Source: an uncultured virus (IMG/VR IMGVR_UViG_3300037245_001434)
Taxonomy: Duplodnaviria > Heunggongvirae > Uroviricota > Caudoviricetes
IMG/VR virus record: IMGVR_UViG_3300037245_001434
DNA: 20,000 nucleotides
Strand: one strand, 5' to 3'
Part shown: positions 13 through 17,933 of the stretch, in pieces
Layout of the letters: each line of letters begins with the position of its first letter
How positions within the stretch are numbered: position 1 is the stretch's first letter
Position numbers and translations under genes: made by a program
Notes under the pieces: generated by a model
Told to the model about the DNA's origin: nothing
Seen by the model: only the letters and a program-made list of their open reading frames with translations
Databases searched by the model: none

Positions 13-624
13 ATGACGTCAACCAATTTTATCACAAAAGAATGCAGTAGCTGCGAAGATATTAAGCCGTTAAATGAGTTTTACAAAAGAAAATCATCTA
101 AAGATGGTTATCATTGCCATTGTAAATCATGCGTATCATTGAACGATGATGAATACAAAAGAACAAAAAAAGGCCTCGTTTTAAAAATATACAAATCTCA
201 AATATCAAGATCAAAAGCAAGGGGTTATGCTAAGCCTGATTATAGTCTTAATGAATTAAGAGAATGGGTATTTAGTCAAGATAATTTCAATGAGATATAT
301 GAATCGTGGGTTTTGTCTGATTATAAAAAGATGCTAATACCTTCTTGTGATAGATTAGATGATTACAAGCCATATAGCTTGCCAAACATTAGACTTGTAA
401 CGTGGCAAGAAAACAAAAGCAAATCTTATTGTGACAGAAAAAATGGCCTGAATAATAAACACAGTAAATATGTTGCACAGTTTAATATCGATGGTGAATT
501 GATAAGTGGATATTATTCGACAAAGCAAGCAGAGAGGGAAACAGGGGTGGCAAATACAAGCATTTCCGCTTGCTGTCTTGGGAAAAGAAAAACGGCAGGT
601 GGCTTTATATGGAAAAGAAGATAA
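13..624 (+). CDS. Free-standing HNH-like (His-Me) homing endonuclease with N-terminal Zn finger and C-terminal NUMOD1/IENR1 DNA-binding domain
   Basis: N-terminal CxxC...CxxC (KECSSC...CKSC); central PSCDRLDDYKPYSLPNIRLVTWQEN resembles the SxDRxD...N HNH-like core; C-terminal VAQFNIDGELI..YYSTKQAERETG...ISACCLGKRKTAGGFIW is NUMOD1-like; abuts terL. Confidence 0.75.
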   Translation: MTSTNFITKECSSCEDIKPLNEFYKRKSSKDGYHCHCKSCVSLNDDEYKRTKKGLVLKIYKSQISRSKARGYAKPDYSLNELREWVFSQDNFNEIYESWVLSDYKKMLIPSCDRLDDYKPYSLPNIRLVTWQENKSKSYCDRKNGLNNKHSKYVAQFNIDGELISGYYSTKQAERETGVANTSISACCLGKRKTAGGFIWKRR

Positions 625-8895: not shown

Positions 8896-9068
8896 TAAGT
8901 ATCCTCTAATGCGTTATTTATCAGCTTAACCATAAATGCTGCATTTGCGTCTGCTTTGTCACTCATTCCAATGAACGAGACCAAGTTATCATCAGCGTCA
9001 TAGATGGCTGTATATACCGCAGTTCTAGCCACCCTTACAGGAGGCGTTATGTTTATGTTAAATTGCAC
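8895..9068 (-). CDS. Small hypothetical protein (57 aa, absent from the ORF track)
   Basis: GTG start, MQFNINITPPVRVARTAVYTAIYDADDNLVSF...ALEDT*; TAATG coupling to the Cro-like gene; fills the gap exactly. Confidence 0.55.
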   Translation of the reverse strand: MQFNINITPPVRVARTAVYTAIYDADDNLVSFIGMSDKADANAAFMVKLINNALEDT

Positions 9069-9261
9069 CCTTAGATCTCAAGAATTCTTTTTGCTCAGCC
9101 TGGGTGCTGAATAAGTATGCAACTAGAAGCCCCTCCATTTTCACGCTGAAAGCTGCAAAGCTTACGCGAGCCGTTGATATTTCAGCCCCACTCGATTCTA
9201 GGCTATCAATGGAGATTTCTTCATTGCACCACTTACTTCCGTCTATTAGAGCTGAATACAT
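9058..9261 (-). CDS. Hypothetical protein
   Basis: 67 aa; first gene after the promoter at 9301-9329. Confidence 0.6.
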   Translation of the reverse strand: MYSALIDGSKWCNEEISIDSLESSGAEISTARVSFAAFSVKMEGLLVAYLFSTQAEQKEFLRSKGAI

Positions 9262-9300
9262 TGTCTTGTTCCCGTTGGTTATTGCCTTAACTTGGATACA

Positions 9301-9339
9301 AGTATAAACGCTACTGCTTTATATGTAAAGCTTTTTTAT
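9301..9339 (-). promoter_or_regulatory. Sigma70-type promoter with A-rich UP element
   Basis: - strand ATAAAAAAGC-TTTACA(9329-9324)-N17-TATACT(9306-9301). Confidence 0.7.
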
Positions 9340-9496
9340 TTACTATCTTAACTCCAACAAACTCACTCACAGGCAAAAACCTATACAGCATCTGAAACCA
9401 CACGCCTAGCTCACCATTACGCTCCACTACCTCAATGGTTCGCGTGTTACCGGCGTGGGTTTCTACTGTGTAGGTTCCTGGGGCGTTGAATTGCAT
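9311..9496 (-). CDS. Hypothetical protein
   Basis: 61 aa directly after the tRNA array; GGA upstream. Confidence 0.55.
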   Translation of the reverse strand: MQFNAPGTYTVETHAGNTRTIEVVERNGELGVWFQMLYRFLPVSEFVGVKIVNKKALHIKQ

Positions 9497-9515
9497 AGGT
9501 GATCCGTTTTAAGAT

Positions 9516-9589
9516 TGGAAGCGGCACAAGGAATTGAACCTTGATGCGCGGAGTCAAAGTCCGCTGCCTAACCATTCGGCCATACCGCT
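9516..9589 (-). tRNA. tRNA-Gln(UUG)
   Basis: Acceptor AGCGGTA/TGCCGCT, anticodon arm GCGGA-CTTTGAC-TCCGC, T arm CAAGG-TTCAATT-CCTTG, U73, encoded CCA. Confidence 0.92.
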
Positions 9590-9595
9590 TTAAAT

Positions 9596-9682
9596 TGGCA
9601 GAGAGCAATGGAGTTGAACCATAAGCGTAAACACTCACATTGCTTAGCAGGCAAGCTCTAGCACCGGCTAGAATTACTCTCT
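9596..9682 (-). tRNA. tRNA-Ser(GCU), 8/4 acceptor/T-stem fold
   Basis: Acceptor AGAGAGTA/TGCTCTCT (8 bp), T stem ATGG/CCAT (4 bp), anticodon loop CTGCTAA, long variable arm TGAGTG-TTTA-CGCTTA, G73-CCA. Confidence 0.88.
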
Positions 9683-9686
9683 ATAT

Positions 9687-9772
9687 TGGAGGAAGGTGAA
9701 GGAATCGAACCCTTGACGGTTACGTCACCCTGGTTTTCAAGACCAGTTGCCAGCCATTTAGCGGCACCTTCC
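9687..9772 (-). tRNA. tRNA-Ser(UGA), 8/4 acceptor/T-stem fold
   Basis: Acceptor GGAAGGTG/CACCTTCC (8 bp), T stem AGGG/CCTT (4 bp), anticodon arm CTGGT-CTTGAAA-ACCAG, variable arm TGACG-TAAC-CGTCA, U73-CCA. Confidence 0.9.
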
Positions 9773-9777
9773 TTAAT

Positions 9778-9860
9778 TGGTAGCGGGGGAGAGACTCGAA
9801 CTCTCAAAGGTCGTGGGTCTAAACCACGTAGCTGTGCCAATTTACATTAACCACCCCGCC
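9778..9860 (-). tRNA. tRNA-Leu(UAG), short variable loop, enlarged D loop
   Basis: Acceptor GGCGGGG/CCCCGCT, anticodon arm CGTGG-TTTAGAC-CCACG, T arm GAGAG-TTCGAGT-CTCTC, A73-CCA. Confidence 0.87.
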
Positions 9861-9865
9861 AGAAG

Positions 9866-9950
9866 TGGTGGATGAACTAGGAATCGAACCCAGAATGCCT
9901 TACGGAACGGGGTTACAGCCCGCACGCGATCCATACGCGTCTATTCATCC
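9866..9950 (-). tRNA. tRNA-Tyr(GUA)
   Basis: Acceptor GGATGAA/TTCATCC, anticodon arm GCGGG-CTGTAAC-CCCGT, variable hairpin CC-GTAA-GG, T arm CTGGG-TTCGATT-CCTAG, A73-CCA. Confidence 0.92.
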
Positions 9951-9955
9951 TTATA

Positions 9956-10032
9956 TGGTACCCACCCTCAGAGTCGAACTGAGAATCACAGAGGCTTAAA
10001 CTCTGTGGCGTTGCCAATTAGCCTAGGTGGGC
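9956..10032 (-). tRNA. tRNA-Leu(UAA), short variable loop
   Basis: Acceptor GCCCACC/GGTGGGT, anticodon arm CAGAG-TTTAAGC-CTCTG, T arm CTCAG-TTCGACT-CTGAG, A73-CCA. Confidence 0.92.
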
Positions 10033-10048
10033 ATTAAATATTAATAGG

Positions 10049-10123
10049 TCGGAATGGTAGGATTCGAACCTACGGCCTCTCGGTTCCAAACCGAGTCGTC
10101 TACCAAGCTGACAATACACTCCG
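10049..10123 (-). tRNA. tRNA-Pro(UGG), CCA not encoded (ends A-CCT)
   Basis: Acceptor CGGAGTG/CATTCCG (C1-G72, A73), anticodon arm CTCGG-TTTGGAA-CCGAG, T arm GTAGG-TTCGAAT-CCTAC. Confidence 0.93.
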
Positions 10124-10140
10124 CCTATTAACACTCAGGC

Positions 10141-10179
10141 AATAAAAAAGCCCTCGTAACTTTCGCTATGAGGGCTTTT
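10141..10179 (-). terminator. Intrinsic terminator (attenuator 3:4 hairpin) directly upstream of the tRNA array
   Basis: - strand AAAAGCCCTCATAGC-GAAA-GTTACGAGGGC-TTTTTTATT. Confidence 0.88.
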
Positions 10180-10207
10180 CAGAATACTTCTTGTGCTGCT
10201 GAAAAAA

Positions 10208-10273
10208 CTACATAGCTGTCCCGTCCGAATAACTCGGCGATTGCGGGAGAACTTGTAATAGTAGTGCTTTCAT
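10208..10273 (-). CDS. Putative attenuator leader peptide MKALLLQVLPQSPSYSDGTAM (21 aa, absent from the ORF track)
   Basis: ATG AAA GCA CTA CTA TTA CAA GTT CTC CCG CAA TCG CCG AGT TAT TCG GAC GGG ACA GCT ATG TAG; control codons match all seven downstream tRNAs; sits between promoter and terminator. Confidence 0.82.
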   Translation of the reverse strand: MKALLLQVLPQSPSYSDGTAM

Positions 10274-10281
10274 AATGAAGA

Positions 10282-10310
10282 AGTATATATCAACCTTTCA
10301 CGTTTATCAA
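10282..10310 (-). promoter_or_regulatory. Sigma70-type promoter for the leader/tRNA array, overlapping the end of rtcB
   Basis: TTGATA(10310-10305)-N17-TATACT(10287-10282); 8 nt between the -10 box and the leader ATG, no SD, so leaderless or near-leaderless. Confidence 0.75.
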
Positions 10311-11393
10311 CGGCGTTACGTGATGGATAGTATCCACTAAATCAGCCTGCAGGCGCATCACTTCAAAGATGTCCTTGTAAGCTAATGGCGATTCATCCAA
10401 GGTGCTTTCATCGACAAGCGCGGTAACGCCTTGCATGGTTGCCTTGAAATCCTCTACGTTAAGCTCTCGTTCTGCTTGCTTGCGCCCCATCACGCGCCCA
10501 GCCCCGTGAGAGCTAGAATATAAAGAATCAGGGTTTCCTTTACCTCGCACAATGAATGAGCCATCACGCATATTTCCAGGTATCACGCCCATCATTCCAT
10601 CTTCTGCATGGGTAGCACCTTTCCGGTGAATCCATAAACCGTCTTTCTCTTCTGCATGGTTATGGTTACGGTTAATAAGATGATCCCATTCACCATGCCC
10701 ATCACAATAAAAAGCCATTGCATCAAGAACTGAAATTAACATCTGCTGGCGGTTTATTAATGCGTACTCAAGCGCCCAATTCAGATCATTGATGTATGCC
10801 TGACCATTATCACTATCAACTCTAAATCCATAGTGCCCGTCACGTACCTTGCCCTCGGGATCTGCAAGCCGTACATATTCAGTAGCTATGCCATGGCCTA
10901 CGCCGCGTGAACCGGAATGAATAATAATCCAAACCTTGTTAGTTTCATCTTTGCCAATCTCGATAAAGTGGTTCCCACCTCCAAGAGTACCAATACCTCT
11001 AAACCCCTTACGCTTTTCAAAGGCTTTCCGGCCAAGGTCTGCCAAGTGCCAGGGATCTAAATCACATCCTGCAGGGTGTTGGTGTACTTTGCCAACGCCG
11101 ACAGGAACGCGCGTGTATATCTCATCAAAGATCATCCTCCCGTTTTTTATAATGTCATCAACATCAAATGTAGTTGGCAGTGCGCACATTCCACACCCGA
11201 TATCGAAGCCCACCCATGATGGTAGAATCACTCCCTCAGTGGCTACGACTGCACCAATAGGCAATGAATATCCCGTGTGAGCATCTGGCATTAATGCACC
11301 CTTAATAGAAAAGTCTTGCTCCATTGCGCTGTTAAACTGCTCTAATGCGGTTTCTTCTAAGTGTTCTGCATAAATTTTAATCTGCTTGCTCAT
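10290..11393 (-). CDS. rtcB: RtcB family RNA 3'-phosphate/5'-OH ligase
   Basis: MPDAHTG, GFDIGCG, GTLGGGNHF, HSGSRG, HNH, HRKGAT, PGNM, SHGAGR, DESPLAYK motifs. Confidence 0.96.
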   Translation of the reverse strand: MSKQIKIYAEHLEETALEQFNSAMEQDFSIKGALMPDAHTGYSLPIGAVVATEGVILPSWVGFDIGCGMCALPTTFDVDDIIKNGRMIFDEIYTRVPVGVGKVHQHPAGCDLDPWHLADLGRKAFEKRKGFRGIGTLGGGNHFIEIGKDETNKVWIIIHSGSRGVGHGIATEYVRLADPEGKVRDGHYGFRVDSDNGQAYINDLNWALEYALINRQQMLISVLDAMAFYCDGHGEWDHLINRNHNHAEEKDGLWIHRKGATHAEDGMMGVIPGNMRDGSFIVRGKGNPDSLYSSSHGAGRVMGRKQAERELNVEDFKATMQGVTALVDESTLDESPLAYKDIFEVMRLQADLVDTIHHVTPLINVKG

Positions 11394-11462
11394 TCAATAT
11401 CTCCATCCCTCTCTCAACCAGCCGATCAAATACCGGCCACGTATGCGGCTTAGATAGCTGCT

Positions 11463-12404
11463 TTACAATTGCCGTTCAACTGCACTAACTAGAAAATCAT
11501 CCCAAAAGCCGCGATCAACATTCTCTGGCAGCTCGCACGTAGAAGACAGCTCCTCTACTCGATCCATTAAGGCCTCAAGCGTTGGCGCTACCTCTGATAA
11601 GTAATCAGCCTCACCACGCTTGATCCTCTTCAAGTAACCTGCCTGCTCAAGAGGGAAAACAATGGTTCCTTTGGTGTAAATCTCTTCAAGTTGATAAGCG
11701 GCTCTCATGGCATGTGAGAGTGCTTTCCAGTCAATGCCCTGGTTCTTTGCGGCTAACTCTGCCCTTGATCCAAATGCTGTTACGAATATAGCCAGTGATT
11801 CAATGACGCTATCAACCTTTACTGTTTCGAGGAACTTCTTACCGCATACCTGATAGATTTTGCATTTGTTTGTATCTTTGTCGTTTGGCTCAAGGTGGTG
11901 GATATGCTCCCCTGTTGGTAGCATGCTCCATACGTCACGCATCCGTGTATCAGACGGAAGCCCACTAAGTAAAGCGATCACCTCTTTAGCTGCATTTAGC
12001 CTGCTACCTTTAACGCCATACTTAGCCGCCTGCCTTCTACAGTAACCAACAAACGCCTTAAGGTTCTTGGTGTAGAACTTATCTCTATTAGCAGCGATAG
12101 CTTTCCACACATCACTAGACTCGATGATCATTGAATCAGGAGCGTGTAGCATGTCAATCGCAACTGTTTGACCTTCACACGCAAGCTCAATGAACCGGTG
12201 CAGAGAAAACATTTCATCATCAATATCGCCAGCGCCGTTCTTTCCGTGCTTATCGCCGGTAGAGGTGCTGATTGATTTGGGAAATTTAGCCAGCAATATC
12301 TGCCGTTTCGTTGGCATATAAATACCCTTAAAGTCATCATCAGATGATTCTGTATTGGTGCCGTAAAGATGTGACCCAAACTTCATATAAACTAGCTTCT
12401 GCAT
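11463..12404 (-). CDS. Pol-beta superfamily nucleotidyltransferase (RlaP / T4 NrdC.11-like)
   Basis: FGSHLYGTNTESSDDDFKGI (GS...DxD) and C-terminal DWKALSHAMR. Confidence 0.85.
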   Translation of the reverse strand: MQKLVYMKFGSHLYGTNTESSDDDFKGIYMPTKRQILLAKFPKSISTSTGDKHGKNGAGDIDDEMFSLHRFIELACEGQTVAIDMLHAPDSMIIESSDVWKAIAANRDKFYTKNLKAFVGYCRRQAAKYGVKGSRLNAAKEVIALLSGLPSDTRMRDVWSMLPTGEHIHHLEPNDKDTNKCKIYQVCGKKFLETVKVDSVIESLAIFVTAFGSRAELAAKNQGIDWKALSHAMRAAYQLEEIYTKGTIVFPLEQAGYLKRIKRGEADYLSEVAPTLEALMDRVEELSSTCELPENVDRGFWDDFLVSAVERQL

Positions 12405-12982
12405 TTTAGCTCTCCCTCTGCGCTTCTTGCGCGTTGGTGGTAGTATTCGATGATCTGATTCATTGCCCTGATGTAGAGTGTTTTATCTCCATCTATCAGG
12501 TATGGCATGAGCTTCACTATTTCACTCATGTAGACCTTTGCGAAATTCTTATCGTTGGTGCAAATGCACTTGGTATTGTGAATAATATCAGCAAGCTTAA
12601 TGGTCTTGCCGCCCGGTGTGGCGTTTGCAAGATGCTCTCTATCAAGGGCTTTCCTGATCTCTCTATTCCCATCCTCTGGCCGAGAAACATCAGTTACATC
12701 GCCAACCATTTGCGCTACATAGTTGCAAAAGCCAGCCTCTTTAATCTCATCAATGGTGACTGGCGTATCTTCAACCACATCGTGTAGGAATGCAGCGCTG
12801 ATTGTGTCGCAACAGGTAGTAACAGAGGCCACTATCTGCGCTACAGCTATAGGGTGAACAACATAAGGCTCACCGGTGTACTTTCTCTTTTGCTCACCGT
12901 GTGCTTCAGCGGCAAACTCACACGCGTAGTCGATTAACTGCTGACTGCGATCATGCTTAATTCCGTGGTCGTACATTTTCAT
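12392..12982 (-). CDS. Stand-alone RelA/SpoT-type HD hydrolase (small alarmone hydrolase / Mesh1-like)
   Basis: AAEAHGEQKRKYTGEPYVVHPIAVA, AAFLHDVVEDT, IKLADIIHN; no synthetase domain. Confidence 0.88.
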   Translation of the reverse strand: MKMYDHGIKHDRSQQLIDYACEFAAEAHGEQKRKYTGEPYVVHPIAVAQIVASVTTCCDTISAAFLHDVVEDTPVTIDEIKEAGFCNYVAQMVGDVTDVSRPEDGNREIRKALDREHLANATPGGKTIKLADIIHNTKCICTNDKNFAKVYMSEIVKLMPYLIDGDKTLYIRAMNQIIEYYHQRARSAEGELKCRS

Positions 12983-13088
12983 CTCCTTTTAATTTAAACT
13001 CAGCTGTATCATTGCGCTCTTTTGGTTTTGCGTAGGTTCCCATTGTTTGTGGCCTTGATGTTAGCCGCCTTCCTTGGCAGCTATTTGG

Positions 13089-14558
13089 TTAGCTAGAAAT
13101 ACGCGCTCTAATAGCCGCTAAAGTTTCATCAACTTTCAGCTCACCATTTAGGAAGATGGTTTGCATCAAACATGGCTCAGTATGGTTTAGAGCCAATCGA
13201 TCCTTGCATACCAGCTCACCATCAACCATCTGCACGGCGACACAACCAGTATTTGATTTCTTCGTTCCATCATCCGTTTTAGGGTCTTTGAAGATCATCT
13301 TCTCTTCACCGTCAATGACCACCATTGTTGACTTCATGGCAAAGCCAAACGTATCTCTGGTGTTGTATTGGTAGGTGTATGAGCCAATACCAAAAACCAC
13401 ATTGGTAGATGCAAACCCTTTCTCAGCCAGGATATAGCAAATAGCCTCGCATCGCTCTGGCGTAATAGAATCGCCATAGATCGCCCCAATATGTGAATCA
13501 AGCTCAATATAGCCCTGTGCGTTCTTCTCACCACCAAAGATATCGTAAAGACACTCAACCACGCCTTTGTATTCTTGCGAACCCTCTTCCGCTGTTAAGT
13601 CACCACAAATGATATCTACAGGGTCGCCACTATCAGGCCGAATAACGACCTTGCCATCTCTGGCCATAATTTCAGGCTTTAGCGGCTTGATGATAGTTTC
13701 TAAGCAGCCGAACAGATCCCACGTATCGGAAACAATGCTAATAATGCCTGTAGGGTAGACCTCAGAAATTAACCGGCGATAGGTTTCAAATTCATTATCA
13801 GCGCCACCGGCACACATTACAGAGTGCTCTGTAGCGTTAACTGATGTACCAACCAACTCCTTCTCAATATCAGCGTTATAGTACCGCTCAAGGTAAGCAA
13901 TAGCAGGAACGGTATCAGTGCCAACAAACGAAAGAAGATGCCCTGCACCAGATAGCATTGCAGCGTCAATGCCTGCCATCCCCCTCATACTGAAGTCATG
14001 ACCCTGGAATGGCACGAAGTCAGTCGAACCTGCCGTTTTTAGTGCGTACTCATCAAGGATAGACCGATAAGAAAGTGCAATCGTCGCCGCTGTTGAAGTT
14101 AGCCACATCTCAGTAGAGGCTAAAGTTTCAATGTAGTTAGTTAGCCAAAAGAATCGGCTATCAACGTTATGCACTGTTAGCATTGGCACCCGCATAGGAA
14201 CAAGCGTGCCTTCTGGCAAAGCTTTAATGTGCAACGGCATATATCCAAGCTCATGCAGCTCTTCAATATGCTTGGTTTCTGGATTCTCGATAAACAGCGT
14301 GTATTTGATGTATCGCGCATATTCGGCAACAACATCATCAATCGGGCGAGAGAAGAAGTTTTCATTGAAGTAATCGATGAGTATCTTCTTAATCATCCCT
14401 TGTGCGCCAAAAGCTACAACTGATTCAGCTCTTGGGAAATATTTGTTAGAACGAGGTGTCCACGTTGAATAGACGACCTCTGTTTTATCTGGGTACTGTG
14501 CGCGGTGTGATATTTTGTAGAAATCACAAAGTAATGTTGCTGGTGTTGTATGTCTCAT
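13089..14558 (-). CDS. Nicotinamide phosphoribosyltransferase-like enzyme (Nampt/NadV fold; probably Namat of NARP1)
   Basis: DFYKISHRAQYP, HDFSMRG, GTDT, ATEHSVM, SIVSDTWD, VIRPDSGDP, IYGDSIT, FGIGSYTYQYNTRDTFGFAMK, KDPKTD. Confidence 0.93.
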   Translation of the reverse strand: MRHTTPATLLCDFYKISHRAQYPDKTEVVYSTWTPRSNKYFPRAESVVAFGAQGMIKKILIDYFNENFFSRPIDDVVAEYARYIKYTLFIENPETKHIEELHELGYMPLHIKALPEGTLVPMRVPMLTVHNVDSRFFWLTNYIETLASTEMWLTSTAATIALSYRSILDEYALKTAGSTDFVPFQGHDFSMRGMAGIDAAMLSGAGHLLSFVGTDTVPAIAYLERYYNADIEKELVGTSVNATEHSVMCAGGADNEFETYRRLISEVYPTGIISIVSDTWDLFGCLETIIKPLKPEIMARDGKVVIRPDSGDPVDIICGDLTAEEGSQEYKGVVECLYDIFGGEKNAQGYIELDSHIGAIYGDSITPERCEAICYILAEKGFASTNVVFGIGSYTYQYNTRDTFGFAMKSTMVVIDGEEKMIFKDPKTDDGTKKSNTGCVAVQMVDGELVCKDRLALNHTEPCLMQTIFLNGELKVDETLAAIRARISS

Positions 14559-14569
14559 GCTATCTCTCC

Positions 14570-15328
14570 CTAAATTAGCTTGATTTTCTGACTTGTCGCA
14601 GAAAGTAAGTTGTCTTTTGATGTGTAAAGCCCGTCTATATGGTCGAATAATTCTCCTGTGAACACGTTATTTTCTAAATGCGCCACTAACAAAAATACTT
14701 CTTTAGCGCCCTTAGCTCTTAATTCCTTGGCGGCCCCTATAAAGGTGCCACCTCTACTGCATAGGTCATCAACGATTAGTACACGCTCACCTACATCACC
14801 TAAGATGCTGTATGACTGAATATCGCCGCTCTCGAAGTCACGATGCTTATGCCCGACTGCATACTTTAATGGTGATAGGTATCTCTTTTGTGCCCCCGCA
14901 TCAGGGAAAAGTAGCGAGTCTGCGAGAATGTCGCGACCCACAGATCCAATCTTTTGCTGACACCACTCAATAGCTTTGCACTTATCTAGTAGCGGCTGAG
15001 AAACATCAGAATGCGGTTCAATTATGGTGACGCTATCGAACTCCAGGTTGTTAATAAGGTCAGCAGAAACTTTGAGGCCCATGCAATAATGATCGTTTAC
15101 TCTATCCATTCTTGAGTGAGGCATATACCGAATAGTAAGATCGTTTATCGACTTATCAATCCTATTTAATTCGTGCTTCAGCATAGCTAACTGAAAAAAC
15201 TCTTCATCTCCCTCATAGACCCACTCGACAACATTGCGCTGCTGCATGCCGATAGCACTAATAGGCAAATAGGACTCATTATTTGGGAACTTACCAAACT
15301 CAATATCATTACAATTTAGCTTTATCAT
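14570..15328 (-). CDS. Ribose-phosphate pyrophosphokinase-like enzyme (probably Adps of NARP1)
   Basis: KFPNNE, YMPHSRMDR, EPHS, FPDAGA, KHRD, VDDLCSRGGTF (PRT loop); adjacent to the Nampt-like gene. Confidence 0.9.
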   Translation of the reverse strand: MIKLNCNDIEFGKFPNNESYLPISAIGMQQRNVVEWVYEGDEEFFQLAMLKHELNRIDKSINDLTIRYMPHSRMDRVNDHYCMGLKVSADLINNLEFDSVTIIEPHSDVSQPLLDKCKAIEWCQQKIGSVGRDILADSLLFPDAGAQKRYLSPLKYAVGHKHRDFESGDIQSYSILGDVGERVLIVDDLCSRGGTFIGAAKELRAKGAKEVFLLVAHLENNVFTGELFDHIDGLYTSKDNLLSATSQKIKLI

Positions 15329-17004: not shown

Positions 17005-17520
17005 TTACTTTGGCATCAAGTTGGCGCGTGACATAACTATCATCGCCTCTGGTTTAAACCATTCACCGCTTACGCTGTATTTCCTAAGCCGCTCATGGAA
17101 TGCTTTCTCCATGCATAAGGCATGGGCGTCATTATCGGCATTTATTCTAGCTAGAATGGTAAGGCTGTACGGTGATGCTGTTTGCAGAGCCTTTACTCGT
17201 TTATCAACATCCCTAGCCTTGCCTATCTTAATAAAGTTGCCGCCTCCTTGCTGTTGAATTATGTATACATAACATCCGCCGCACTCTACTTTTTTAGTCT
17301 GTCTTGATGCAATAACGCCAGTAAGCTTCATATGCTCATATATGATTCTTTTGGCAACCTCCTTTGTCATCTCCCTTGGCTGCTTATCACCTCTTGATTC
17401 AACTATCTTTGACGCTAAAACAATAGAAGGCAACCGCTTACGGTCAAGCCCCATTACCTTTTGCAGTCTGCAGACATGAGCCGCCTTGAATGCTCCTCTA
17501 AGTCTCTTTCTCTTTATCAT
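17005..17520 (-). CDS. T5orf172/MUG113 (GIY-YIG-like) domain protein
   Basis: YVYIIQ...IKIGKARDVDKRVKALQTASP...EKAFHERL...GEWF; start placed at ATG 17520 (GAGGG/GGAG upstream) because ATG 17580 lies within the structured region. Confidence 0.8.
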   Translation of the reverse strand: MIKRKRLRGAFKAAHVCRLQKVMGLDRKRLPSIVLASKIVESRGDKQPREMTKEVAKRIIYEHMKLTGVIASRQTKKVECGGCYVYIIQQQGGGNFIKIGKARDVDKRVKALQTASPYSLTILARINADNDAHALCMEKAFHERLRKYSVSGEWFKPEAMIVMSRANLMPK

Positions 17521-17933
17521 CTCCAGCCCTCTCAGATCTACTTTAAAGTCAGTTACTCCACTTTCCCCTGTAGAATCCATGCACTACAGCTCAACCGTAA
17601 TTGAGTAAAGGTACTAGCTAATCCCCTTTCTGTTTCCAGAATAACCAACACCATGTTAGTTAGCGTCATCACCCGCTAAGGCTCTACAGGCTAGGTTGCA
17701 AGTGGTCAGCATTGCCTAGATTGATTTGTTAGCTTCTTTAATTCCTGGCCTGCGAAGATCGACAGCACTGCTAACGAGAGGAGTCCGATCGATGTGATAA
17801 ATTAGCTTAGGTCTGGCAGCGATGCGACCTTGAAACTTGGACTCACTGCATTAGCGGCTTCAAGGGCAACTAAATTAAGCCAAGGCGTACTCTTCAGTAC
17901 ATTACACCACTGCCAGAATTAAACTAACTCATC

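Follow-up and report, generated by a model that had tools for sequence, protein, structure and literature searches.

The stretch of DNA analysed here, hereafter the window, comprises 20,000 nucleotides (nt) from an uncultured virus of the Caudoviricetes (IMG/VR record IMGVR_UViG_3300037245_001434) and is a phage fragment, encoding a portal protein, a Mu F-like protein, and a protein of the N4 gp49 family. On its minus strand, an array of seven transfer RNA (tRNA) genes is preceded by a compact leader, composed of a sigma-70-like promoter, an open reading frame (ORF) of 21 codons devoid of a Shine–Dalgarno (SD) sequence, and an intrinsic terminator (Table 1). All of these elements lie where the original prediction, made from the letters of the window, had placed them when proposing that slow reading of the ORF opens transcription into the array. 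The analysis of the window, its homologues, and remote analogous elements leads us to regard it as probable that the leader is a ribosome-mediated leader-peptide transcription attenuator gating the phage tRNA array, with feedback on the tRNA supply.

Table 1 Features of the leader and tRNA array, of the adjoining operon, and of related leaders (positions refer to the window unless another locus is named)
Feature	Position	Strand	Remarks
-35 hexamer TTGATA	10305..10310	-	17-nt spacer to -10 hexamer
-10 hexamer TATACT	10282..10287	-	sigma-70-like; promoter matches 10/12
Leader ORF, MKALLLQVLPQSPSYSDGTAM*, 21 codons	10208..10273	-	ATG 8 nt past -10 box; ORF 3' end:terminator 5' arm, GCUAUG:CAUAGC
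Proposed control codons 4-16	10226..10264	-	11/13 cognate to array anticodons; 0 cognate elsewhere in ORF
Segment 1, 5' strand of long 1:2 hairpin	10244..10272	-	minimum free energy (MFE) structures
Segment 2, 3' strand of 1:2	10200..10223	-	holds stop codon (10210-10208) and U6 run
Antiterminator 2:3, GCUAUG:CAUAGC stacked on UUUUUCAG:CUGAAAAG	10165..10216	-	constrained fold
Intrinsic terminator 3:4, AAAAGCCCUCAUAGC-GAAA-GUUACGAGGGC-U6, i.e. A4-GCCCUCAUAGC-GAAA-GUUACGAGGGC-U6	10144..10179	-	-18.8 kcal/mol
Spacer, 20 nt, ending in conserved junction GAGTGTTAATAGG	10124..10143	-	directly 5' of tRNA-Pro
tRNA-Pro (UGG)	10047..10123	-	ARAGORN and Rfam; first of array
tRNA-Leu (UAA)	9956..10032	-	ARAGORN and Rfam
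tRNA-Tyr (GUA)	9866..9950	-	ARAGORN and Rfam
tRNA-Leu (UAG), atypical	9781..9855	-	Rfam tRNA model, 19.9 bits, below gathering score; missed by ARAGORN
tRNA-Ser (UGA), atypical	9691..9772	-	Rfam tRNA-Sec model, 41.5 bits; missed by ARAGORN
tRNA-Ser (GCU), atypical	9599..9683	-	Rfam tRNA-Sec model, 47.3 bits; missed by ARAGORN
tRNA-Gln (UUG)	9516..9589	-	ARAGORN and Rfam; last of array
RtcB RNA ligase gene	10290..11393	-	Pfam PF01139, E 1e-87; context, outside the cassette
Operon NAMPT-like, phosphoribosyl pyrophosphate (PRPP)-synthetase-like, HD-domain, RlaP, RtcB	10290-15328	-	directly upstream of tRNA cassette
Extra tRNA-like element of L049, ~75 nt	about 540-615 (L049)	-	between Leu-UAG and Ser-UGA; by eye 7-bp acceptor stem, 9-nt anticodon loop with CCA
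Leader peptide of L049, MNKLSTLSPYQQPSYSEGMGV			ORF 3' end:terminator 5' arm, GGCG:CGCC plus GGGC:GCUC
Leader peptide of L054, MKKFTLSSPSLYPSQLEGGAL			ORF 3' end:terminator 5' arm, GGAGGG:CCCUCC
Leader peptide of L014, MKFICPSYLSLLPPKRLEV			ORF 3' end:terminator 5' arm, UGGAGG:CCUCCA
Leader of G005-A, MITFLHLSQSLSLYPYPHGYFGLRM			tRNAs Gln, Pro, His, Leu, Leu, Tyr, Ser, Ser
Leader of G005-B, MINLTTNTNRIFTNEIRWGGFACVKNTGIDKM			tRNAs Trp, Asn, Asp, Lys, Ile, Phe, Arg, Glu; after HNH gene Gly, Cys, Val, Ala, Met, Arg; then Met, Thr
Leader of G004, MKTLLLKLEQLEKHEKSCAGMVSFS			tRNAs His, Glu, Lys, Lys, Glu; after a gap Leu, Leu, Lys
Leader of G002 (L027), ...MKTFTSLQLSWSQSYPLLSERTTCL			tRNAs Gln, Pro, ..., Ser, Leu

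Four of the seven tRNA genes were called by ARAGORN, and Rfam adds the remaining three, whose anticodons (UAG, UGA, and GCU) were read from the sequence. In the homologous locus L049 (see below), the counterpart of the window Ser-UGA gene is called Ser-UGA by ARAGORN, and the counterparts of both Ser tRNAs are matched in Rfam by the tRNA-Sec model only. The leader ORF in front of the array reads ATG AAA GCA CTA CTA TTA CAA GTT CTC CCG CAA TCG CCG AGT TAT TCG GAC GGG ACA GCT ATG TAG. With cognate codons defined by Watson–Crick plus standard wobble pairing, which assigns 14 codons to the seven anticodons, our recount agrees with the original claim for codons 4–16. Of the 20 internal codons of the leader, 11 are thereby cognate, compared with 18.0% of the 4884 codons in 19 window genes (binomial P 2e-4); base shuffles of the leader give P 0.0014–0.002, and the two other frames contain 5/19 and 5/19. 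Taken alone, the window nevertheless exceeds chance only moderately.

The promoter match by itself means little, since the four promoter-like sites observed at 9000–11600 compare with an expectation of 4.2 from shuffles. No SD sequence precedes the ORF, although a 4-nt SD core precedes 14 of the 23 window genes, and because the -10 box ends 8 nt before the ATG, the transcript would be leaderless or nearly so; from this spacing we infer leaderless initiation. In the MFE fold of the leader, the 1:2 and 3:4 hairpins are both present (-41.0 kcal/mol), and the region 10135–10282 is strongly structured (z = -3.84), none of 200 shuffles folding as well. The terminator, whose U-run ends 20 nt before the start of tRNA-Pro (10123), was not called by a simple terminator scan because its stem is imperfect. 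Withholding the 3' arm of the terminator lets the 2:3 antiterminator form at -15.6 kcal/mol, and a ribosome placed at the stop codon reduces it to -0.7 kcal/mol. Among the three alternative pairings described beforehand, 2:3 was recovered exactly and 3:4 is contained in the MFE fold, whereas 1:2 takes a slightly different register. The U6 run following the stop codon (10202–10207) pairs with codons 2–3 (GAAAGC) in the MFE fold or, alternatively, with GAAAAG before the terminator; the latter can also pair with the terminator U-tail, and the same three-way competition is seen in L049 and L054.

Rfam leader families do not account for the element. A full-length match to the Rfam His_leader (RF00514) scores 23.3 bits (E 0.06–0.34), below the gathering score of 49, and owes most of its score to the terminator; weak matches to the His_leader, rnk, Thr, and Phe leader models were accordingly rejected as evidence of membership, being driven by the terminator. 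No T-box was present among the 15 Rfam matches obtained at E up to 10 for positions 10100–10330.

Related phages were searched, as had been proposed beforehand, for a short ORF and a terminator ahead of tRNA arrays, and among about 150 fetched loci three full homologues were found (L014, L049, and L054). L014 is the single one of 22 viral loci with RtcB relatives that has a homologous cassette after RtcB, L049 was found by a metagenome scan with the Pro–Leu junction, and L054 by an nhmmer profile run over the fetched loci (E 3e-11). A tRNA-Pro pattern matched 11 loci, with a leader only in L039, a repeat of L014; with the junction pattern, 6 viral matches were obtained, including L052 (L014 once more), and 84 in genome_contigs, none of the latter being a real relative; leader-only queries against INPHARED returned only short chance or terminator-like matches, and an apical-hairpin pattern returned two chance matches, both within coding region. 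In all four cassettes (values are given below in the order window, L049, L054, and L014), a promoter of the form TTGAnn-17-TAnnnT with 10–11 of 12 matches is followed 8, 7, 6, and 6 nt past its -10 box by an ATG without SD sequence, an ORF of 21, 21, 21, and 19 codons whose stop codon falls within segment 2, a hairpin separating this stop codon from the terminator, and the terminator itself, with GAAA or UCAAA as its loop and U6–7, after which a 13- to 20-nt spacer leads to tRNA-Pro. Upstream, the cassette is flanked by RtcB in the window and L014 and by a different, unrelated gene in each of L049 and L054, so that it constitutes a mobile unit that begins at its promoter.

The spacers are variable except for the junction pattern AGTRTWAATAGGC running into the first base of tRNA-Pro, which is common to the window (10124–10136), L014 (4396–4408), L049, and L054 and may be a processing site. 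A separate promoter between the terminator and tRNA-Pro, an arrangement that the original prediction had set against itself, was not found in the 20-nt spacer by the promoter scan. The TAAATAG-like junction was also considered as a promoter and rejected, there being no scan match and the start, judged by eye, falling inside tRNA-Pro.

The coding content of the homologous leaders is conserved in an unusual manner. Among the three 21-codon leaders, pairwise nucleotide identity is 36–39% in codons 2–12 and 60–77% in codons 13–22, where the apical hairpin and segment 2 are located. Codons for Leu, Ser, Pro, Tyr, and Gln (L/S/P/Y/Q) amount to 12/20 in each of these three leaders and to 10/18 in L014, with aligned positions exchanging P/Y/S, Q/L/S, and S/Q/Y; the class is kept in all three 21-codon leaders in 9 of 20 columns, compared with 4/19 and 2/19 in the other frames. 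Strict cognates, counted in the ORF frame and then in the other two, number 11/5/5, 10/5/4, 9/4/4, and 8/5/4. Because the composition is kept while the sequence diverges, the leader ORF would appear to be selected for the tRNAs that it consumes, unlike a peptide selected for its sequence. Partial relatives from other runs (X2 and X3) align with the leader at 80–95% identity, only from the ATG onward, and all four of their listed substitutions in codons 4–16 (CCG>CCT, CAA>CTA, CCG>CCA, and TCG>TTG) remain within the L/S/P/Y/Q class, compared with 44% of single-base changes by chance; covering the listed substitutions only, this gives weak support. The X3 relative, from another metagenome, shares the leader and has its array rearranged: in the RNA sense, Gln precedes the two Ser genes, and the part following Tyr is replaced by about 209 letters of other sequence (compared with window 9514–10273).

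These data bear on the idea that the leader is a stand-alone tiny gene, namely, a 21-residue peptide or a small RNA of ~130 nt with a function of its own, for example as a decoy or inhibitor of host factors, and that its position before the array merely reflects tight packing. Having its own promoter and terminator and a strongly structured transcript, the unit would be suited to such a role, PSYS[D/E]G is kept in the window and L049, and passages of two reports on rhizobia describe liberated attenuator RNAs and leader peptides that act in trans (PMC6614838, PMC7968998). We nonetheless consider this explanation highly improbable, as it is the composition of the peptide that is kept and not its sequence, and as it leaves unexplained both the pairing of the ORF 3' end with the terminator arm and the change of leader composition with the downstream array, to be described below; moreover, the tRNA genes would then be left with no promoter of their own.

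The second conserved property is the potential for alternative pairing. Each of the four ORFs is complementary at its 3' end to the 5' arm of its own terminator (Table 1), the terminator stems having different sequences, and when the 3' arm is withheld, 6–12 nt of the 5' arm pair with the ORF 3' end in every cassette. The antiterminators so formed have energies of -15.6, -17.0, -15.3, and -17.4 kcal/mol, which become 0 to -0.7 kcal/mol with a ribosome at the stop codon. The assignment to trp/his/ilv-type attenuators made in the original prediction is thus borne out for the architecture, which is kept in the three full homologues with complementary ORF 3' ends of their own, but not for the window 2:3 pairing, which is no better than those of shuffled sequences (P 0.185).

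The most direct test of the relation between leader and array came from remote elements. A fixed rule was applied to viral loci, requiring a hairpin of -9 kcal/mol or better and a trailing run of at least T5, both located no more than 80 nt ahead of the first tRNA in an ARAGORN block, and 8 of 31 block starts passed. Leader ORFs were listed when beginning with ATG, having at least 10 codons, and ending no more than 110 nt from the T-run, and the ORF right after the promoter was taken; a second overlapping ORF was also listed in G005-A and G004, and in G002, where a longer ORF was listed, the part from the internal ATG after the promoter was used. Besides the homologues, the screen yielded four remote elements (G005-A, G005-B, G004, and G002; Table 1). 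A terminator before His, Thr, and Glu tRNAs (L028/G003) was discarded as a further analogue, having no leader ORF and following another tRNA-like sequence. In the G002 block, a GOLLD RNA lies downstream of the leader and terminator (L027 563–1014, minus strand; 174 bits against a gathering score of 150).

G005 (L143) is a 13-kb phage fragment with two units of leaderless-type leader plus terminator (277–455 and 1197–1395), each at the head of a tRNA block; the amino-acid sets of the blocks complement each other, and an HNH endonuclease gene is located between the later tRNA blocks. Both leaders have promoters of the form TTGACA-17-TAATAT or AATAAT, with the ATG 7 nt past the -10 box. The array of unit A is equivalent to the window tRNA set plus His, and its leader contains two His codons, whereas a His codon occurs in none of the four close homologues and not in G002. 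Under a strict codon–anticodon rule, leader A matches its own array in 13/24 codons and array B in 4/24, and leader B matches its own array in 16/31 codons (26/31 with the later blocks) and array A in 1/31 (Fisher p 1.8e-5 and 2.0e-5 for the A/B swap). Likewise, the G004 block is matched by 12/24 codons of its own leader, compared with 4/20 of the window leader (p 0.06) and 4/31 of leader B (p 0.006). An antiterminator is predicted in all four analogous elements and is removed by a ribosome near the ORF end (largely so in G005-A). Over the eight leaders, homologous and remote, the ORF frame is the best of the three in every case, with shuffle P ranging from 0.0014 to 0.07. The co-variation of leader codons with array anticodons, which had been proposed beforehand as a check, is thus borne out by the remote elements, while the close family follows it imperfectly. 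It is this comparative evidence, not the window alone, that carries the case for an attenuator.

In the predicted mechanism, transcription from the sigma-70-type promoter would start at or 1–2 nt before the AUG, and the 21-codon ORF would be translated as a leaderless message. A ribosome moving fast would reach the stop codon in segment 2 and mask this segment, so that 3:4 would form 20 nt before tRNA-Pro and transcription would stop. Without translation, 1:2 and 3:4 would both form and transcription would stop as well, and the same hairpin would thereby end the upstream operon. If the ribosome is slowed at roughly codons 4–13, at those read by the isoacceptors represented in the array (Leu-UAG, Leu-UAA, Gln-UUG, Pro-UGG, Ser-UGA, Ser-GCU, and Tyr-GUA), segment 1 would be covered and segment 2 left free for pairing with the 5' arm of the terminator, allowing RNA polymerase to read into the seven tRNA genes. 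The newly made phage tRNAs would then speed the decoding of the leader and shut the gate, constituting negative feedback. Decoding could be slowed by a natural shortage of these host tRNAs, by host shut-off, or by defence nucleases cleaving them. A stall at any control codon was originally assumed to open the switch; in our modelling, stalls at codons 4–12 leave the antiterminator intact, but those at codons 14–16 progressively cover segment 2, so that the conserved PSYS codons probably serve less well as inputs than do the variable ones preceding them.

A number of observations weigh against the attenuator, beginning with the window itself. By cognate share, its leader ranks third of 270 small ORFs (15–40 codons, six frames; mean 0.27, standard deviation 0.11), two chance ORFs scoring 0.56 against its 0.55. 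Translation of the SD-less ORF from a predicted start is an assumption, and the long 1:2 hairpin, once formed, would bury the AUG. All folding is equilibrium modelling, in which the antiterminator stands out from shuffles of the same bases only in L054 (P 0.048) and L014 (P 0.003), and not in the window or L049 (P 0.228), although its topology is kept in all four. Codons 13–16 (PSYS) form the conserved apical hairpin CCGAGUUAUUCGG, so that their conservation may be structural, and stalls at codons 14–16 weaken the antiterminator.

Similar reservations arise from the relatives, the close homologues among which are not independent samples. The codons and arrays of this close family agree to a mixed degree: the L014 record (47 kb, 91% complete) has only Pro, Leu(UAA), and Leu(UAG) tRNAs, yet its leader keeps AGT, TAT, and TCG and matches its own array in only 5/18 codons; this leader contains no Gln codon and has more Leu and Pro codons (7/18) than the other leaders. 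L054, which keeps a single Gln codon where the window and L049 each have two, shows no Gln tRNA on its contig of 5.65 kb; in L049, no leader codon matches the extra tRNA-like element, which was called by neither ARAGORN nor Rfam. Two of the swap comparisons are not significant (the G004 leader against the window array, p 0.22; the G005-B array against the G004 leader, p 0.27). Finally, the cassette is dispensable, as many phage arrays have no such leader and tRNA-Pro directly follows RtcB in L001 and L045, and 23 of the 31 screened array starts show no terminator within 80 nt, many of these 23 not being true block heads owing to genes missed by ARAGORN and to cut loci.

Some of these points, namely, the missing SD sequence, the two chance ORFs, the ordinary stability of the window antiterminator, and the relatives with tRNA-Pro placed right after RtcB, would be expected if the hairpin were a constitutive leaky terminator or insulator that merely closes the upstream operon and the short transcript from the nearby promoter, and past which the tRNAs are made by fixed leak-through or with a phage antitermination factor, the ORF being untranslated and its codons incidental. 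The same may be said of the hairpin lying where an operon of the same orientation ends, the stop codon of RtcB being located within the leader promoter in the window. A leaky terminator would, however, give no reason for a codon enrichment that is specific to the ORF frame in all eight leaders, for a composition kept at 36–39% sequence identity, or for the fit of each G005 leader to its own array and not to the other (p about 2e-5). Neither would it explain an AUG held 6–8 nt past the -10 box in the four homologues and 7 nt past it in both G005 leaders, nor the complementarity of each ORF 3' end to its own terminator. We therefore judge it unlikely, and retain the ribosome-mediated attenuator as the favoured explanation.

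The surroundings of the array raise the question of which condition the attenuator would report. In the window, genes for NAD salvage and RNA repair adjoin the spare tRNAs, the operon directly upstream ending with RlaP and RtcB (Table 1). No near match to the window was found in INPHARED (50,697 phage records), the distant matches being confined to RtcB and tRNA pieces. The window DNA is contained in a marine-sediment metagenome run, which may be its source, and no RNA run was among those listed for it. Two further window genes are probably of the homing-endonuclease type: one (17005–17580, minus strand) encodes a T5orf172/MUG113-domain protein, and the other (13–624, plus strand) a protein whose NUMOD domain is I-HmuI-like. 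The presence of the RNA-repair module (RlaP and RtcB) and the NAD-salvage genes next to the cassette in both the window and L014 would suit a dedicated counter-defence sensor, firing only when anticodon nucleases or tRNA-blocking effectors destroy the seven isoacceptors, and passages of one report describe phage tRNAs as rescuing phages from tRNA-targeting defences (PMC11555353). We consider so narrow a role unlikely. The cassette occurs without RtcB in L049 and L054, and the analogous leaders head blocks covering most amino acids (as in G005-B, where 26/31 codons are matched when later blocks are included), which gives the family the look of a general gauge of decoding capacity, not of a nuclease sensor. 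In addition, the logic of the switch would fire equally on scarce host tRNAs or amino-acid starvation, and a plain homeostat of decoding capacity fits the observations equally well.

The predicted attenuator is worth comparing with the enterobacterial leader-peptide attenuators, such as those of ilvGMEDA (Leu/Val/Ile codons), thr (Thr/Ile), trpL, hisL, leuL, and pheL. Like the ilvGMEDA- and thr-type leaders, the phage leader has a promoter-proximal short ORF rich in test codons, by which several amino acids would be sensed, 1:2, 2:3, and 3:4 pairings predicted to be mutually exclusive, an intrinsic terminator just before the regulated genes, and a product that would relieve the signal. In contrast to the amino-acid operon leaders, the phage cassette would regulate tRNAs instead of enzymes, and its test codons match the anticodons of the co-transcribed tRNAs (five amino acids, seven tRNAs). 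Its ORF, SD-less and located 6–8 nt past the -10 box, is of the leaderless type and spans segments 1 and 2 with the stop codon in segment 2, whereas the trpL ORF ends between the two segments; furthermore, the phage element is a mobile cassette and a member of no Rfam leader family. The attenuator of pheST (pheM leader), which controls phenylalanyl-tRNA synthetase, is similar in that leader-peptide attenuation acts on a component of the translation apparatus and not on amino-acid synthesis, but it concerns a synthetase gene, a single amino acid, and a cellular genome, as opposed to the tRNA genes of the phage cassette. The T-box riboswitch, which binds uncharged tRNA directly and needs no ORF, also reports tRNA status through a decision between terminator and antiterminator; in the phage cassette, the sensor would be the ribosome. 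An attenuator-like leader of the E. coli tRNA-Phe gene was considered as a precedent and dropped, as the DNA upstream of pheV shows a plain promoter only. A full-text literature search revealed no account of tRNA genes, phage or cellular, being controlled by attenuation, although an older report in subscription journals is possible; relative to the known attenuators, leader-peptide control of tRNA genes would be an extension, and the present case the first one found.

Why phages carry tRNA genes is debated, the proposed reasons including compensation for codon usage, substitution for host tRNAs that have been degraded, and escape from defences directed at tRNAs. If expression of the array depends on the speed at which those very codons are read, the phage itself reports the purpose of its tRNAs, that is, the restoration of specific decoding on demand. 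We consider it reasonably likely that the window cassette and its relatives constitute a family of mobile phage cassettes, in which a leaderless test ORF written in the codons of the tRNAs behind it serves as a gauge of decoding capacity and turns the block on only when these codons are read slowly. If true, leader-peptide attenuation would extend from amino-acid metabolism to the tRNA genes themselves, and the cassette would represent a compact natural sensor for the availability of several tRNAs at once. The composition of such leaders could then predict which tRNAs share one transcription unit in uncultured phages.

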